Sequence record: OK272472.1
Strand: one strand, 5' to 3'
Length of the DNA stretch: 64,000 bases
Source of the DNA: Escherichia phage JLBYU28
Shown one piece after another: positions 1 through 19,415 of this stretch. How positions within the stretch are numbered: the first letter of the stretch is position 1; each line of letters starts with the position of its first letter. The position numbers and the translations under genes are program-made. Under the pieces are notes generated by a model. It had not been told where the DNA came from and made no database searches. It worked only from the letters and a program-made list of their open reading frames with translations.

Positions 1-254
1 GTGGTATGAGAAACCCCATTGTGGGTCAGAAAAGCCCCATACCATAACACTAACTCCAAAGAAGAAGACTAGTGTTCGGAGCATTGGTATCAATGCTTTT
101 GGTATTTTAAACATTTTAACTTATCTCTCAATTCACAATAAGAGAGTTCTAAAAAGAACCCTAGTAAGACAGAGCCTATGAGCAACCCAATAATACTCTC
201 TGCCATATATAACATCCAATAAAAAAGGTGATATAAGCCTATCAAGACCCACAT

Positions 255-267
255 CACCTTGTCAAGT
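255..267 (-). promoter_or_regulatory. Copy of conserved TTGACAAGGTG promoter-like motif (minus orientation)
   Basis: Plus strand reads CACCTTGTCAAGT, matching motif copies at 15828-15851 and 56197-56220; sits just downstream of the nrdD stop. Confidence 0.3.
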
Positions 268-268
268 T

Positions 269-1216
269 TTACATAGAGACTCTATCACGAATCTCAGCGA
301 TTTTTGCATCGTTCATTCGGGATTCACCTTTAATCTTAGTCCATCCAAGATACCCACACACCCTGTTAATCACAGAGATATCATATGAATGGCAAACCTC
401 ACACTCTTCCACATCAGCCTTTGGTCTGTTACCACAATGTTCACAGATTGCTAAGTCAAAGTTAAGTCCTTGATAGAAACCTTTCAACATACCTCTCGTA
501 ATACAACTCTTAAGTGCTGATAAGTTTTCTGGGTTAGCTACTCTTACATACTGGATTCTACCACCTCTACAGATATGGAAGAATGGCTCTTCTAAGTCCT
601 GCTTCTCAAATGGTGAGATGTCTGCTGCAACATTCATATGGAAACTGTTTGTAAAGTATTCCTTGTCAGAGACACCTTTAATAACGCCAAACATATCTCT
701 GAACTGTTTTAACTGAGTTCCACAAAGTGATTCTGCTGGAGTGCCATATACCGCATACAAGAAGCCATCTTCGTTCTTAAACTCTTCAGTTTTCATGTTG
801 ATGTATTCTAGAACATCGTATGCAAAACTACAGCTTCCAACTTCATGAAGTCGTTTACCTTCAGCAAGAACAGATAGCTCATCAAGCGCAGTAACCCCAA
901 AAGAAGCTGTGAAGGACTTCACGATATCCCAACCAACCCTGTCAGTAGGTTTCTTATTCCCTTTGTACAGACCACCTTGTGTAAATGCAAGAGGGTTAGA
1001 ACTTGCTGGCATATTAGCAATCATTTCGTAACGTTTCTTGTGGAAGCTGCGAATCATTTCTAAGTACTTATCAAGCTCTTTCCAGAAATCTAAGCCATTC
1101 TCTTTAGAATACTGGTAAATCATTGGTAAGTTCAAAGATACAGCACCAATGTTAGCACGACCTACATAAAACTCTTCACCATTCTCGTTATGATATGGTG
1201 ATAAGAACGCTCTACA
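269..1216 (-). CDS. nrdD: Anaerobic ribonucleoside-triphosphate reductase NrdD, exon 2 (C-terminal part incl. Zn ribbon and glycyl-radical region)
   Basis: Translation contains CRAFLSPYHNENGEE...GRANIGAVSLNLP, CEHCGNRPKADVEECEVCH and C-terminal RVCGYLG motif; frame stays open upstream of the track ORF to codon TGT at 1214-1216. Confidence 0.8.
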   Translation of the reverse strand, partial: CRAFLSPYHNENGEEFYVGRANIGAVSLNLPMIYQYSKENGLDFWKELDKYLEMIRSFHKKRYEMIANMPASSNPLAFTQGGLYKGNKKPTDRVGWDIVKSFTASFGVTALDELSVLAEGKRLHEVGSCSFAYDVLEYINMKTEEFKNEDGFLYAVYGTPAESLCGTQLKQFRDMFGVIKGVSDKEYFTNSFHMNVAADISPFEKQDLEEPFFHICRGGRIQYVRVANPENLSALKSCITRGMLKGFYQGLNFDLAICEHCGNRPKADVEECEVCHSYDISVINRVCGYLGWTKIKGESRMNDAKIAEIRDRVSM

Positions 1217-1532
1217 CTTGTTGTTCAGGTAAGTTCGCTAAGCTTACCCCGCTTTATTCAAGCTGCTTACTGTCGCCAGTAAGTCCAGACTATATCTTCT
1301 ACTTATTTCTAAGTAGCGTACCATTTCGAGTCGCTTGACCCTACACCGCTACATTCATCACGGTTAGTCGTTCGGCATTTAGATGTATTCAAACTCATAT
1401 TCGAAGTTATTTGGCATGTAAGACTCCTATGTTGTATAGTTTCTTACATCATACACCATTTAGCACAGGATTGTCTACATCTGTAGAGTTTCCCTGTTTA
1501 GGCACGTTTTAGATGAGCTATAGAGCTTGTTA
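1217..1532 (-). ncRNA. Group I self-splicing intron in nrdD (no internal ORF)
   Basis: 316-nt interruption between NrdD ...SPMG and CRAFL...; minus-sense R-like element CCGAACGACTAACC (plus 1362-1375) and S-like element GATATAGTCTGG (plus 1285-1296) can pair as P7; upstream exon ends in U, intron ends in G. Confidence 0.65.
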
Positions 1533-2729
1533 ACCCATCGGTGAAATTACCTTACCAGAACGCTCAAAAGCCTCTGCTACAGCACCATGACCAGATACAC
1601 TTAAGAAGTCTGGATACATTGCTTTAGAGCAACACTCAATGGCTTTACTGTACAGGTGACCTTGACAAATATTCTCATCATGTCTCTTCTGGTCATAGAT
1701 ATAAACCAGTTTAGGAAATACAACCGGTTTTTTGCTCTTACCTTGTCCGTTCATACGAACATCTAGGAGAGTACTTGCAATCATATATTGCAGTCGGTTA
1801 TCTTCATTAGACATATCTGAGTCAAGTAACCCGAATGTCAAAGTTGTAAATGCAAAATCCCCACGGCTACAAGGTACGGTATTTAGTTTCATCTCAAGTG
1901 ACTGAAAACCTTGAGTCAGTTCAATTTGTAACTGCTCCATTACATAGTTATGGTAATGTTCTTTAGGAATACCGTAAGATGCTGCTTTCTCAGCATGATA
2001 GCGTAGAGACTTCTTAGCATACGGTACAAGCACCTTATCAATCTCTGCTAAAGTAAATCCACCAAATTGCTGTGCAGTTGCTGAAAGAACTACATCACCA
2101 ATAACCTGTAAGGCTGACAGCACAGACTTCGGTTCACAGTATTCAATGCCAGACATTTCAAAGCCACCTTTCAGTACTTTACCGATGTCAAACAGGCAAC
2201 AGTTGATACCACCAAAAATTAGGTCTCTTAAGTCATGGATGTAGATAAACCCTTTTTCAATGGCTTCGAGTTCCTCTGGTGTTAAATGGTATTGTTTAAA
2301 GATTTCTTTAGTCAGATAGCCACGAATAATTGAACCTTTTGTAGAAATTAAACTGCTGTCAAAGTTAGCATTTTCACGGTCACCTAAGAAGAGTGTATCC
2401 TTAGTCTTCTGGTAAAGTTCATCCCAATTTTGAGCAACCTCTTTACGGTAATTTCTATACGTTGAGTAAGACTCATAAATCTCGTGATTGACTTCTGCCA
2501 AAGCACCCTCAACAATACTGTGAATATCATTTACTGAAACGAGTAAATTATTCTGCTTAGTAGATTTTACCAGAATCCTCATAAATGCTGACTCAAGAGC
2601 TTGAGTAACATCTGGTGGAAGCTCTTTATAACCAACTCTGTTAGCTGACTTTGTGACTGCTGCTAAAACTTTTTTGATATCAGGTTCTTCGAGTGAGCCA
2701 TTCTTTTTAATAATCTGTACTTTGTTCAT
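1533..2729 (-). CDS. nrdD: Anaerobic ribonucleoside-triphosphate reductase NrdD, exon 1 (N-terminal part)
   Basis: 399-aa ORF ends ...SGKVISPMG then an in-frame stop that is the first intron codon; joined to exon 2 gives about 714 aa, typical NrdD length. Confidence 0.8.
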
Positions 2730-2748
2730 TATTGCCCCTTTACATGCT

Positions 2749-2770
2749 AAAAAGGTCTCCGAAGAGACCC
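2749..2770 (-). terminator. GC hairpin with UUCG loop plus U-run (minus strand), just 5' of nrdD
   Basis: Minus sense GGGTCTC-TTCG-GAGACC followed by TTTTT. Confidence 0.45.
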
Positions 2771-2777
2771 TTTCATT

Positions 2778-2984
2778 TTAAATCTTTTTAGAAAACTTCG
2801 CAAAGAGTTCTCTTAGCTTTTCAGTGATACCAAGATGTATCTCTAGGATTTCAAATATAACCCATAGTAACATGACTCCAAACAACAAACCTTGTTCAAA
2901 GTCAGTAAATAGGTTAACAACAAGCATACCAATTACAATAGCTGGTGCATCAATAACCAAACCTTCCCAAAGGCGTTTAAGCAT
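2778..2984 (-). CDS. Small hydrophobic membrane protein
   Basis: 68-aa ORF, hydrophobic core LVIDAPAIVIGMLVVNLF...LLFGVMLLWVIF. Confidence 0.4.
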   Translation of the reverse strand: MLKRLWEGLVIDAPAIVIGMLVVNLFTDFEQGLLFGVMLLWVIFEILEIHLGITEKLRELFAKFSKKI

Positions 2985-3219
2985 TATTCACCTCTGCCAT
3001 AAAATTCTGTAGCGTACCAACAGGTTTTAGGTTTTGTCCATCAGTTTTCATGATGAATGGCATCTGACGAACTGGCATCTGTGCAATGTCCATTAGTTCC
3101 GATAGCTCATAGTCCTGCCCTAACATTCTCACAACATGGTCAATACCACGAGCTTTTGCAAAATTCTTTGCAGTCTCACACTGAGGACATCCAGTTTTGG
3201 AGTAAATTACATAAGTCAT
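2977..3219 (-). CDS. Glutaredoxin/NrdH-like redoxin
   Basis: 80 aa with CPQC active-site motif (SKTGCPQCETAK), adjacent to nrdB. Confidence 0.7.
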   Translation of the reverse strand: MTYVIYSKTGCPQCETAKNFAKARGIDHVVRMLGQDYELSELMDIAQMPVRQMPFIMKTDGQNLKPVGTLQNFMAEVNNA

Positions 3220-4352
3220 TAAGGAACCTCTAAAAATCCACTATTCAAATCATCTACAACAGTATTCAACAGGTACGCACCGTTCTGCTGCTCCTGATTA
3301 GCATTCTGCTCTTTATCAATTTCCATCTTCTTAATCATGTACTTCAAAGGTGGTTCTTTAGGAGCTACAAAATCTCTGGGAATGCCAAACATATCATACA
3401 GTGGGGCAGCATTATAGTAAACCCACTCATGAAGAAGCTTTGTATTTAGGCCAACTACAGCACGTCCTTCGGAGAAGATATAATACGACCATTTCTCTTC
3501 ACTTTCAACTACTTCATCTAAGATTACTTTAATCTCTGGAAGAATTTGTTGAAAAGCTTTCTGCCACTCATCATCTCTTAAAGTTTCTTTTAAAACTTCA
3601 ATATCAATTTTAGTGTGAAGGATTTCGTCAAGCATAATTTTCTGCACAGCTTGAGCAATACCCTGAAATTTATCTTGAGCATCAAGTGCAAAAGTACATG
3701 CAAAGGATGCCATAAAAGATATACCTTCCAGTGCAGTCACTGCAAATAGACCTTTTAGAATCACTTTATGGAAGTGTAAAGGGTCTTTGTCAAGAAGTGA
3801 ATCACGGACATAACTCAGTCGGTAGTTTATACCTTCATCCAGTAATTCTTCAAGAACACGATTCACAGTTTTTAATCGGTCTTGCACAGCAACATTCTGG
3901 TTAATCTCATCTAAGATTGTTTCAGGGTTTTTAATACATTGCCTTACAATCTCTGAGTAAGTAAGAGCATGTAGGTTTTCAATCTCAGACTGCTTCATAA
4001 TTGCAGTTGCATAGATGTCATCAGAGATAAAAGGTGCAAAGGCAAATGCCAAGCTCTTAGCAACTTGAGTATCCGCTTCCCATTGCCACTTAAGAATCTC
4101 AAGCATTACACCTGACATTGATGCTGGGACACTCTCAAAATCAAGACGTGATTGTTCAAAAGGGAACTCATCTTCTGACCAGTCTTGTGCTTTTTGTTGT
4201 TTATAAAGTTCAAAGATTTTTGGGTAGTGTTTATTAAGTGAGTCAAAAGTTTTCCTCTCACCACCTAAAAAGATTGGGTGCTGGTTAATCATAGCGTGAT
4301 TTCTCCTTTCTTTATCATTTCTAAGGCTTGTTTTCTGTCTAAAACTTCCCAA
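3219..4352 (-). CDS. nrdB: Ribonucleotide reductase class I small (beta) subunit
   Basis: 377 aa; position between redoxin and nrdA; ferritin-like helical protein with E/H-rich segments. Confidence 0.75.
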   Translation of the reverse strand: MGSFRQKTSLRNDKERRNHAMINQHPIFLGGERKTFDSLNKHYPKIFELYKQQKAQDWSEDEFPFEQSRLDFESVPASMSGVMLEILKWQWEADTQVAKSLAFAFAPFISDDIYATAIMKQSEIENLHALTYSEIVRQCIKNPETILDEINQNVAVQDRLKTVNRVLEELLDEGINYRLSYVRDSLLDKDPLHFHKVILKGLFAVTALEGISFMASFACTFALDAQDKFQGIAQAVQKIMLDEILHTKIDIEVLKETLRDDEWQKAFQQILPEIKVILDEVVESEEKWSYYIFSEGRAVVGLNTKLLHEWVYYNAAPLYDMFGIPRDFVAPKEPPLKYMIKKMEIDKEQNANQEQQNGAYLLNTVVDDLNSGFLEVP

Positions 4353-15851: not shown

Positions 15852-15910
15852 TTGCTTTTTATAATTTTTTGCAGTAATGTATGTGGTTAATGATTTTAGA
15901 GGGAGTAAAA

Positions 15911-18053
15911 ATGGAAAACGTAGATTTTAAAAACTTACATTTAGTTGGTGATACAGAAACTGATGGTTTACTCCTTGAGTTCACTAAAGTTCACGTAATG
16001 GCCTTTGCAGACTATAAATCTGACGATGAAGAGCCACCTGTATGGGTCTTTACAGATGAGCCTATCCTCGGTCACAAGTACACCAAGTACATTAAGGGTG
16101 GCTTACGTGAAGGTATTGAGTTTGCGTTAAAGGCAAAACGTCTTTGCATCCACAACGGTCTCGGTTATGACTGGTGGGTTTTCAATCACATTGCACCTGA
16201 TTTATGGAACTTTGATAATCCAAAGTGTAAACCGTGGAGTAATTTCTTTCAGGATTCTCTTATCCAGTCTCGTGTTCAGTGGATGGATAGACCAACTCCA
16301 AAGGGTTATAAAGGTGCTCATGGTTTGGCTGCATGGGGTGCTCGTGTTGGTGTTCGTAAACCAGAGATTGAACATTGGGGTGTATGGAATGCAGAAATCT
16401 TCACTCGTGTTGTAGAAGATATACGTATTAACGCCAAAACTAAACGTGCACTTGATAACGAGTATCTCAAGCTTAAGAAGTGTGGCATAGACACTTATGA
16501 AACCTACATGCGAGCTAAAGAGACATCTTTCTGGATGAGCCAGCAAGCTATTAATGGCTGGAAAGCTGATAAAGAGCTTATGGAGTTCCATGTAAAGGAA
16601 CTTGACAAGTTGACTAATGAGCTTGCTTCAGAGGTTGAACCACATCTACCTCCAACTATTAAGACCAAAGGTAAAGTCACTGGAGAAGAGTTTGCAAAAG
16701 CTTGGAATGAGTATGTTGAAACATTTGGTCATGCAGATGGACTGAAGAGGATTACCAAGTATCCTAAGACAAAGTATCGTCAACAGGTGCGTAACGGTGA
16801 GATGCAGACATACGAAATCAAGCCATTTGGTAAGCCAACTACAAAGATTTTTAACATTGAAAAGAGAAATTGCTATACACCAACCAACTCTGTAACTGGT
16901 GAAGAGTACAAGGAAGGTTTTGTAGCAATGAAGGATGCTCGTGCAATTTGCAATGAGTTGAATGCAAAGATTGGTAAGAAATGCAAAGACTGGAAGCCAG
17001 TAAAAACAGTCAAAACTGTGAAGTACTATAACAGCCACGTTGTTAACCACTTTGAACTTGAGTCAAGTCGCTACACAGGATTGATTGATGCACCATATAC
17101 ACCAATTGAGTTTGAAGTTTCTCGTATGACTCAGGTAGCAGTTGTAAAAGACTACTTGAAATCAGTTGGTTGGATTCCAGATGACTGGAACTACAAGAAA
17201 GACTCAGACGGTCGCCCTGTCAAAGTTTGTCGTTTCAAAGACAATAAAAAGATGATTACAAAACATCCTAAGTGGCAGGAGATGGTTGAGCGGTGTGGTT
17301 TGAGCTATGTTGAGCACGAAGGTGTACAGTATATCGAGCATAACTGGTCTGTGAAGAAGTACACAGATTTGCTTGAATCTTGCTTAATCCGTACTTCACC
17401 AAAACTTACTGAGTCATCTTATGATACGATTGAAGGTGAACTTGGACAGAAGATTGCAAAGTACTATACTTTGATGCACCGACGCAGAACTATTGAGAAC
17501 TCAAAGGATGATGAAAAAGGTTGGTTGAACCAGATTCGTCCTGATGGTCGCCTTAGTGCTGGTGCAATGGTGTTTGGTACTTCAACTGGACGTATGACAC
17601 AATATGGTATTGTAAACGTACCGTCTGGTGCTGCTGTCTATGGAGCACCTATGAGGGAGGTTTGGATTTGCGAGGAAGGGACTAATATCGTTTCAGTTGA
17701 CCAGAACTCTGCACAGCTTGTTTTACTGTGTAACTTTATGGGTGATAAAGAGTTCACTAAAGCGGTAACTGAAGGTAAAGAGTCAGTAGAATTTACCAAG
17801 CGAGAAGATGGGAGGTATTATTGCAAACATCTTGATAAGTACCTTAATCCAGAAACTGATAAGTATCTTCGTTATGATGCTGAGAATGACCTCTATGAAG
17901 TCTACACAGGGACTGATGCGCATACACTGAATAGTATTTACTTTGGTCTTAACAAAGAAGAGGATATTGTTCATTGCAGGGAGACACAGGATGAGGAACT
18001 TCTCCACGAGATTACAAAAGGTCGTAAGAAAGCCAAAAATGGCATTTATGCGT
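15911..18053 (+). CDS. DNA polymerase family A, exon 1 (3'-5' exonuclease and most of polymerase domain)
   Basis: RBS GAGGGAG before ATG 15911; Exo I motif HLVGDTETDGL; ends inside motif B (RKKAKNGIYA). Confidence 0.8.
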
Positions 18054-18321
18054 CAGTGGCGCATGTAAAACGTTGTGAATTGCTGGAAGCCTAAGTCTGT
18101 AAAGATATGGTAATCAGCAGCGAAGCCTCTTAAGAGGAACGTTCAGAGACTATCGAAAAGCATACTTAATGTATGAACTGAGTAGAGTAGGGTGGTAAGC
18201 TAATGACCATTCCCAAGTGCAACGGTAGTATTACTACTACGTGATATAGTCCGACACTCCGTAGAAATGCGGAGAAGTTCATAAGAGAACTGGTACACCT
18301 TGCGAGTGTATTGACCAGATG
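18054..18321 (+). ncRNA. Group I self-splicing intron in DNA polymerase gene (no internal ORF)
   Basis: R element GTTCAGAGACTATCG (18141-18155) and S element GATATAGTCCGAC (18243-18255) form the P7 pairing GACUA/UAGUC; exon 1 ends in U, intron ends in G; splicing gives IYALLFGAGDEK, matching T7 DNA polymerase motif B IYGFLYGAGDEK. Confidence 0.8.
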
Positions 18322-18878
18322 TATTGTTCGGTGCAGGTGATGAGAAGTTTGCCAAAACCATTAAGGCAGCTTCTACAGAAGAAGGTGCATTGACTAAGCA
18401 GACCTACTATATGCGTCTGCCAAAGATTAAGAAGTTACTTGATAGCTTAGAAGCCGATTTTAAGGCGTCTAAAAAGGCTCTGGAAGAGGTTTTTGGGAAG
18501 AATTCTTCAATTGCTAAAGGTGGTTATATCAGGGTTGCTGGAGCATGGATATGGTGCAAATCTCCACATAAACTACTGAACTACCTCCTGATGAGTTCGG
18601 AAGCACAGATTCAGAATGAGGCCATCAACCTAGCAGCAAGAAAAGCCTGTGAAGATGGCCTGACAAAACTGAATGCTCGAAAACCAGCTATCGGAGCAAG
18701 GTTACTTCTGGCATATCACGATGAAAATAGTTGGGAATGTCCAGAGGGTATGACACATGATATGAAAGCAATTGCTGACTGGATGTATGGACAAGCTTCA
18801 AAAAACTTAGGTTTGAGGAAAGAAACACTTGTAACTGGTACAGCAAAGGTTGGTAAGTCGTGGTATGAGGTACATTGA
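18322..18878 (+). CDS. DNA polymerase family A, exon 2 (rest of motif B, motif C and C-terminus)
   Basis: Begins LFGAGDEKFAK; contains motif C LLLAYHDENSWE. Confidence 0.8.
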
Positions 18879-18881
18879 TTA

Positions 18882-19415
18882 ATGGATTTTATTTCACAAA
18901 AACGTTTAAAGGAGCTACTACACTATGACCCCGAAACAGGGGTCTTTACTTGGCTTCGTAGAGAAGGTAAATCAAGAGCTGTTAGTGTTTTTAACAGTAA
19001 CTATGCAGGAAAGGTAGCAGGTAATGTTCAGACAGATTCAACTGGTCATAAACAGATTAGTATCTATTTTGACAAGAAAGCACATAAAGCACACAGACTC
19101 GCATGGCTTTATGTATATGGCAAGATGCCAAAAGGTATCATTGACCATATCAACGGAGACTCTCTTGACAACAGGATTGTAAACTTAAGGGAAGCAGATG
19201 ATTTTCAAAGTGCTTGGAATAAAGGTAAACCAGTCACCAATAAATCTGGGTACAAAGGTGTAAGTCTTAAGAAGAAGTCTGGTAAGTGGGTCGCACAGAT
19301 AAGTTATAAAGGTAAGAAGATGTTTTTAGGTCACCATGACACGCCTGAAGAAGCCCATAAAGATTACTGTGAAGCTGCTATGAAACTCCACGGAGAGTTT
19401 GCAAAACTAAGTTGA
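18882..19415 (+). CDS. HNH homing endonuclease with AP2-type DNA-binding domain
   Basis: HNH motif IDHINGDSLDNRIVNLR; AP2-like GYKGVSLKKKSGKWVAQISYKGKKMFLGHHDTPEEAHKDY; starts 4 nt after the polymerase stop. Confidence 0.7.
   Translation: MDFISQKRLKELLHYDPETGVFTWLRREGKSRAVSVFNSNYAGKVAGNVQTDSTGHKQISIYFDKKAHKAHRLAWLYVYGKMPKGIIDHINGDSLDNRIVNLREADDFQSAWNKGKPVTNKSGYKGVSLKKKSGKWVAQISYKGKKMFLGHHDTPEEAHKDYCEAAMKLHGEFAKLS

Follow-up and report, generated by a model that had tools for sequence, protein, structure and literature searches.

A 316-nt group I intron in the anaerobic ribonucleotide reductase gene nrdD of Escherichia phage JLBYU28

The anaerobic ribonucleotide reductase gene (nrdD) of Escherichia phage JLBYU28 is interrupted by a group I intron of 316 nt, located at positions 1217-1532 on the minus strand of the window, a term used here for the whole analyzed stretch of 64,000 nt from sequence record OK272472.1. 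An initial annotation had placed a group I intron of this length at precisely these boundaries, and all of its coordinates hold. The intron lies between two nrdD exons. Exon 1 (1533..2729, minus strand) comprises 399 codons, which encode the ATP-cone and the N-terminal part of the NRDD domain; the corresponding open reading frame runs from 2729 to 1530 on the minus strand, stop included, specifies 399 amino acids with the C-terminal end ...GKVISPMG, and is closed in frame by the UAA that constitutes the first three bases of the intron. Exon 2 (269..1216, minus strand) contains 315 codons plus the stop and begins at 1216 with TGT AGA GCG (CRAFLSPYHNENGEE), which together with the next codon, TTC, reads CRAF...; its first codon is the one aligned to Cys290 of T4 NrdD. 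It had been claimed that exon 1 ends in ...SPMG with U as its last base and that the intron ends in G, and both bases have been verified as T1533 and G1217, respectively. The best explanation for this organization, to which we assign a probability of roughly 93%, is that group I intron splicing yields a single NrdD and that the element is the derivative of a mobile intron from which the endonuclease gene has been deleted. The finding is real, its first reading was correct and its boundaries are precise, but it is an ordinary one.

At the level of sequence recognition, a scan of the minus strand with the Rfam model RF00028, which had been named as a check in the initial annotation, gave a match of 53.9 bits, only 3.9 bits above the gathering score of 50, with an E-value of 6.9e-11 for the whole window and of 6.5e-13 for a 601-nt subregion. 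The ends proposed by the Rfam model (1266..1616) were rejected, as they force P1 into exon 1 and drop P9.1 and P9.2. The ends of the intron were fixed at 1532 and 1217 on account of the pairings made by the guide sequence and of the existence of intronless alleles. The internal guide sequence (CUCUAUAGCUCAUC; 1512..1525, minus strand, intron positions 8-21) is a contiguous stretch of 14 nt that can be read directly from the sequence. Its GCUCAUC portion (1518..1512, intron positions 15-21) pairs over 7 bp with the end of exon 1, GAUGGGU, to form P1, with U1533·G at the 5' splice site, and its CUCUAUA portion (1525..1519, intron positions 8-14) pairs, also over 7 bp, with the start of exon 2, UGUAGAG, to form P10. 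The predicted exon junction (1533|1216) reads ...CCGAUGGGU|UGUAGAGCG..., and intronless Felix-like alleles (wV8, VpaE1, HY02 and others) match straight across it.

In the window copy every helix of the intron is intact, and all pairs are standard from P3 to P9.2. On the minus strand, the segment 1465..1506 holds the 5' strand of P3 (1506..1501), P4 (1497..1492 with 1470..1465) and the P5 hairpin (1487..1474). It is followed by the P6/P6a domain and its loop (1374..1464), in which P6 is formed by the pairing of GC at 1464..1463 with GC at 1376..1375, and P6a by that of 1457..1451 with 1388..1382. Within this domain, the predicted fold includes a hairpin (1449..1416, minus strand) that spans both the ribosome-binding site (GGAG) and the start codon (AUG) formerly used by the endonuclease gene, the same arrangement that has been described for the endonucleases of T4 introns. 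The catalytic core (1286..1370, minus strand) is composed of P7 (1370..1365 with 1292..1286), P7.1 (1364..1345), P7.2 (1341..1328), the 3' strand of P3 (1322..1317), P8 with a GAAA loop (1316..1299) and J8/7. The R-like (GCCGAACGACUAACC) and S-like (GAUAUAGUCUGG) elements recognized previously are both present and pair with each other as the 5' and 3' strands of P7, which by analogy would be the guanosine-binding helix. Finally, the peripheral 3' domain (1217..1283, minus strand) contains P9 with a GCGA loop (1283..1266), P9.1 (1263..1251), P9.2 (1248..1228) and the intron tail UGAACAACAAG, which closes with the terminal G at 1217.

Both folding energy and comparative evidence bear on this structure. 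Folding based on energy only recovers P10, P3, P4, P5, P6, P6a, P7.1, P7.2, P8, P9, P9.1 and P9.2; the minimum free energy amounts to -91.8 kcal/mol (z = -3.2), and none of 100 shuffled sequences folds as well. For the comparative analysis, 11 related phage introns from at least six lineages were aligned, among them those of Krischvirus phiS, Vibrio phage F97, Phapecoctavirus nepoznato, T4 td, T4 nrdD, Mosigvirus TH58, two Aeromonas Plateaulakevirus phages and a phiKZ-like Pseudomonas phage. An Rfam scan of the related loci matches only the ORF-less relatives and T4 nrdD, and at the gathering threshold it misses the introns of UAB_Phi87, F97, nepoznato and T4 td, which carry an ORF in P6; for this reason, "mini-introns" in which the P6 loop is replaced by a TTCG linker were built for the alignment. 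In the resulting alignment 96.5% of 599 cells are paired, the P3/P7 pseudoknot included, and compensatory changes affecting both sides occur in 36 of the 58 pairs, the structure used for the count having been derived from the window sequence, a choice that favors the percentage of paired cells and not the compensatory changes. The observed values are not attained in any of 500 shuffles, and pairing falls to 33-39% in a control in which the 3' partners were slid by 1-3 columns. Changes on both sides are found in five of the six pairs of P3, in all four of P7.1, in four of the five of P7.2 (which is 100% paired) and in four of the six of P9.2. Covariation involves P3, P7.1, P7.2, P8, P9 and P9.2, P7 being almost invariant and uninformative in this respect, and it is under-counted for P8 and P9.1 because MAFFT misaligned parts of these two helices in some rows.

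Regarding its classification, the P7.1/P7.2 and P9.1/P9.2 extensions and the core identity of 77% to the T4 td and T4 nrdD introns place the window intron with the subgroup IA2 phage type. We take this class to be that of the T4 td, nrdD and nrdB introns, with P7.1 and P7.2 between P7 and the 3' strand of P3, in the sense of Michel and Westhof (1990). Like the window intron, the T4 td intron displays the helices P3 to P9.2 with P7.1 and P7.2 and opens with a UAA stop, and its endonuclease ORF is located in the P6 loop, as in the relatives of the window intron. The 77% identity of its core was obtained from the alignment, and blastn detects the 3' half at 71%. The T4 td intron differs from that of the window in its host gene, which encodes thymidylate synthase, in the presence of a P2 stem-loop that is absent here, and in the type of endonuclease, since td encodes I-TevI, a GIY-YIG enzyme, whereas that of the relatives of the window intron is HNH.

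The T4 nrdD (sunY) intron resides in the same host gene, belongs to the same ribozyme family with the same 77% core identity, and has the same guide hexamer as the window intron, GCUCAU, the 5' exon ending in AUGAGU in T4 and in AUGGGU in the window, one base apart. However, its ORF encodes I-TevII, a GIY-YIG endonuclease located after P9, and the Felix-type enzyme is an HNH endonuclease located in the P6 loop. The comparison of insertion sites proposed along with the initial annotation has revealed that the two positions are different (280/281 versus 399/400): the idea of a common site was rejected by tblastn, in which the T4 intron aligns between residues 280 and 281 of the window NrdD. The window intron therefore lies 119 codons downstream of the T4 nrdD intron site, and T4 nrdD is continuous across the SPMGCRSFLS region. 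Considering that site and endonuclease family both differ, the window intron is not an orthologue of the T4 nrdD intron.

Removal of the intron generates an open reading frame of 2145 nt for an NrdD of 714 amino acids, in which the PMGCR(S/A)FL region is restored, as had been anticipated, in the form PMGCRAFL. The spliced protein contains the ATP-cone and one Pfam NRDD domain that extends across the junction (residues 119-712, profile positions 1-560 of 562), and it matches solved NrdD structures over nearly its full length. The nrdB-grx-nrdD block of the window is 94-96% identical to that of Felix O1-like phages (genus Felixounavirus), and nrdD of Felix O1 itself is uninterrupted, exactly 2145 nt long and colinear with the spliced window gene. 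The two proteins are identical at 706 of 714 residues (98.9%), and the existence of only 8 amino-acid differences as opposed to 116 nucleotide differences indicates that both exons are under strong purifying selection.

The insertion affects a sensitive position of the enzyme, between Gly399 and Cys400 of the PMGC motif and, according to tblastn, directly before the codon of T4 Cys290, a number obtained by counting from our own tblastn alignment. We assume Cys290 to be the radical cysteine of T4 NrdD; a literature search returned nothing citable that names it as such. It has been reported in general terms that the finger loop of NrdD enzymes contains a conserved initiating cysteine and that a finger-loop methionine takes part in the chemistry. 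It has also been described that phage introns and homing endonucleases are typically placed in functionally critical codons, and the JLBYU28 intron constitutes a further example of a mobile intron parked before a key conserved active-site codon. In the frame of exon 2 no start codon is found between the last stop of the intron and Cys400; the first one appears 27 codons downstream, and the annotated coding sequences of relatives start 31 codons downstream. Consequently, an unspliced transcript would give no product with Cys400.

The history of the intron can be followed in its close relatives. The same intron is present, with at least 95% identity over all 316 nt, in 93 phage records, and in other members of Felixounavirus (among them UAB_Phi87, FSL SP-010, EC6, REP8-12 and JohannRWettstein, or Bas63) it occupies the same site and shows no essential difference from that of the window. 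In 61 of the records (UAB_Phi87, Sl26, Bas63 and 58 others) the intron is 742 nt long and retains, in the P6 loop, an ORF of 154 amino acids with an HNH_3 domain. Relative to this form, that of the window is the product of a clean in-frame deletion of 426 nt, and the same 316-nt endonuclease-less version is carried by EC6, REP9, DE7 and others. The claim that the intron lacks an ORF is correct in the sense that no functional one is present, and has to be amended in that a relic of the HNH homing endonuclease gene, 12 codons followed by a stop (MPNNFEYEFEYI; 1379..1417, minus strand), remains. [quoted passage not shown] As this deletion differs from that of the window, there have been at least two independent losses of the endonuclease gene. 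By a rough count of ~217 records that include the nrdD region, ~120 are intronless, Felix O1 and wV8 belonging to these, and 93 contain the intron, in 61 cases with the endonuclease gene and in ~32 without it; all alleles represent presence or absence at one identical junction. This constitutes a homing-cycle series inside one genus, with the empty site, the intron with its endonuclease and two independent endonuclease deletions. Seen against these alleles, the window intron derives from a mobile one by loss of the endonuclease gene; it is neither primitively ORF-less nor autonomously mobile.

Several minor observations concern the same alleles. The Cys codon at 1214-1216 is TGT in the intron-carrying and TGC in the intronless ones, and the U fits the P10 pairing. 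The signal of co-conversion is weak: over the first 50 nt of exon 2 the window departs from Felix O1 at 7 positions, versus a background of ~3 per 50 nt; a conversion tract is not claimed, these differences being too few. Felix O1-like nrdD sequences (~95% identity) have additionally been deposited under Campylobacter phage A132/A126 and Staphylococcus phage SA1 (GU169904.1), records that are probably mixed or mislabelled assemblies.

What the analysis shows directly is the structure of the intron, its boundaries, the allele series and the covariation; what we infer is catalysis, splicing in vivo and homing. The steps by which NrdD would be produced are modelled on the standard group I pathway. 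A ribosome translating exon 1 would stop at the UAA that opens the intron. The guide sequence would hold the end of exon 1 in P1, the U·G pair marking the 5' splice site, to be attacked by a free guanosine bound in P7. The terminal G (1217) would then enter the same pocket, P10 would align exon 2, and ligation of the exons would give rise to an mRNA for a single NrdD of 714 amino acids. With respect to its origin, the intron would have entered Felix O1-like phages as a mobile unit equipped with the HNH homing endonuclease gene in its P6 loop. The in-frame deletion of this gene would have turned it here into a stranded passenger, whose splicing is required for the production of NrdD and which could move only if a co-infecting relative supplied the endonuclease. 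A search of the literature returned no experimental evidence of splicing for JLBYU28 or for any Felix O1-like phage.

A different outcome would be that of a decayed, splicing-dead intron, with nrdD reduced to a pseudogene and the phage relying on aerobic NrdAB or on host enzymes. In the homing cycle, the loss or decay of an intron is indeed preceded by a stage in which its endonuclease gene is deleted, and nrdA and nrdB are likewise encoded by the phage, immediately upstream. Nevertheless, we consider this outcome very improbable, given the near identity of the ribozyme outside the deletion to the endonuclease-carrying forms, the integrity of all helices in the window copy and the strong purifying selection on both nrdD halves, which is not expected of a pseudogene. 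Marginally less probable still is a reductase made from genes in pieces, in which an active enzyme would be assembled from two polypeptides, one translated from each ORF. Most records do annotate two separate nrdD coding sequences, two genome papers report a split gene or endonuclease insertions with no intron called, and there is a precedent in Aeromonas phage Aeh1, whose NrdA is split by mobE. Yet the spacer is a complete group I ribozyme backed by covariation, its ends pair with the internal guide at precisely the join by which the intronless allele is recreated, and a separate C-terminal piece would lose Cys400 and about 30 surrounding residues (first start 27-31 codons downstream), so that the locus does not conform to the Aeh1 nrdA-a/nrdA-b type, characterized by a lack of ribozyme and by an own start that covers the essential residues.

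The preferred reading, a group I intron spliced out of nrdD and descended from a mobile unit, can be set beside the introns of Krischvirus phiS, Phapecoctavirus nepoznato, Justusliebigvirus phi92 and Vibrio phage F97, all of them inserted in nrdD at the identical Gly|Cys position. In these four phages exon 1 ends in ...MG (GGU) and exon 2 opens at the same Cys codon (CRSFL/CRSLL), and their ribozyme cores are 73-82% identical to that of the window, although the phage backbones are unrelated and the NrdD encoded by exon 2 shares only ~29-33% amino-acid identity with the window protein. The HNH endonucleases encoded in the P6 loop at this site are orthologous, with 39-53% protein identity to the Felix-type enzyme; the ORFs of these phages end inside P7 (...EMPND followed by the stop), and the Felix-type ORF in P6. 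The phi92 record annotates a "spliced variant". In F97 (OZ195764.1, locus 1-3700) nrdD is in at least three pieces, with two different HNH genes (327-1256 and 2027-2533) between them, and the second interruption is the Gly|Cys-site intron. Altogether, introns at this site span Krischvirus, Stephanstirmvirinae and a Vibrio phage, mostly with orthologous endonucleases. We tentatively propose, with somewhat less than even odds, that the intron and its HNH endonuclease form one mobile unit targeting the Cys-codon site of nrdD that has crossed between phage groups without mutual relationship, namely Ounavirinae, Straboviridae (Krischvirus), Stephanstirmvirinae and a Vibrio myovirus, and that a single ribozyme lineage moved from one nrdD site to the other, reverse splicing being a possible route, and later gained different endonucleases. 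A hint of such a switch is that the GCUCAU guide is common to the T4-site and window introns, whose targets are one base apart. The core identity matrix, in which the introns are not grouped by insertion site, speaks neither for nor against such a switch. For its part, a review from 2010 found no convincing evidence of intron-borne endonucleases moving between phage types. As a further T4-site intron, that of Mosigvirus TH58 was compared alongside T4 nrdD with window positions 1512-1539 at the 5' splice site, the guide hexamer of the T4-site intron being the one used in the window.

The intron is already known at the annotation level and is under-annotated elsewhere. In the BASEL record of Felixounavirus JohannRWettstein (Bas63), the nrdD exons are joined around a 742-nt gap at the same junction, and the S5 table of the BASEL paper counts one intron for Bas63. 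The Felix O1 genome paper reported no introns, a statement that is not contradictory, since Felix O1 carries the intronless allele. Later genome papers have written of a "split nrdD" with a homing endonuclease in between, or of inserted endonucleases, with no intron called, and "split gene" is also the term in most other records. A brief reference to "two introns" appears in the paper on phage SPJ41; our literature search found no paper describing the Felix-type nrdD intron as such. The mis-annotation of nrdD is partly due to the Rfam threshold, which misses the endonuclease-carrying form. The significance of the intron is mostly that of an annotation fix, as dozens of Felix O1-like genomes list as two fragments plus a "homing endonuclease" what is really one nrdD gene with a group I intron, and several of these mis-annotated phages are used for biocontrol or therapy. 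The intron opens no new question.

Other elements were encountered in the window and in the related phages. A second group I intron is detected in the window at 17991-18274 on the plus strand (RF00028, 64.2 bits), between two ORFs, the reading frames of the region being located at 15881-18094, 18324-18878 and 18882-19415. The upstream ORF, of 737 amino acids, has no Pfam match, and the downstream one matches DNA_pol_A only weakly, at 25 bits against a Pfam cut-off of 34.3; just after it there is a free-standing homing endonuclease gene with HNH_3 and AP2 domains. According to Rfam calls, 21 tRNA genes are clustered at 49287-54034 on the minus strand of the window, as is usual for Felix O1-like phages. 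ORF-less IA2-type introns are likewise present in Plateaulakevirus genes of Aeromonas phages TS9 (seemingly two, at 1885-2127 and about 3100-3330) and phiA047 (1877-2117), the genes themselves being unannotated, and in the phiKZ-like Pseudomonas phage HUST_1 (1863-2091), where the intron lies between ORFs for the RNA polymerase beta subunit; none of these three records annotates the introns it contains.
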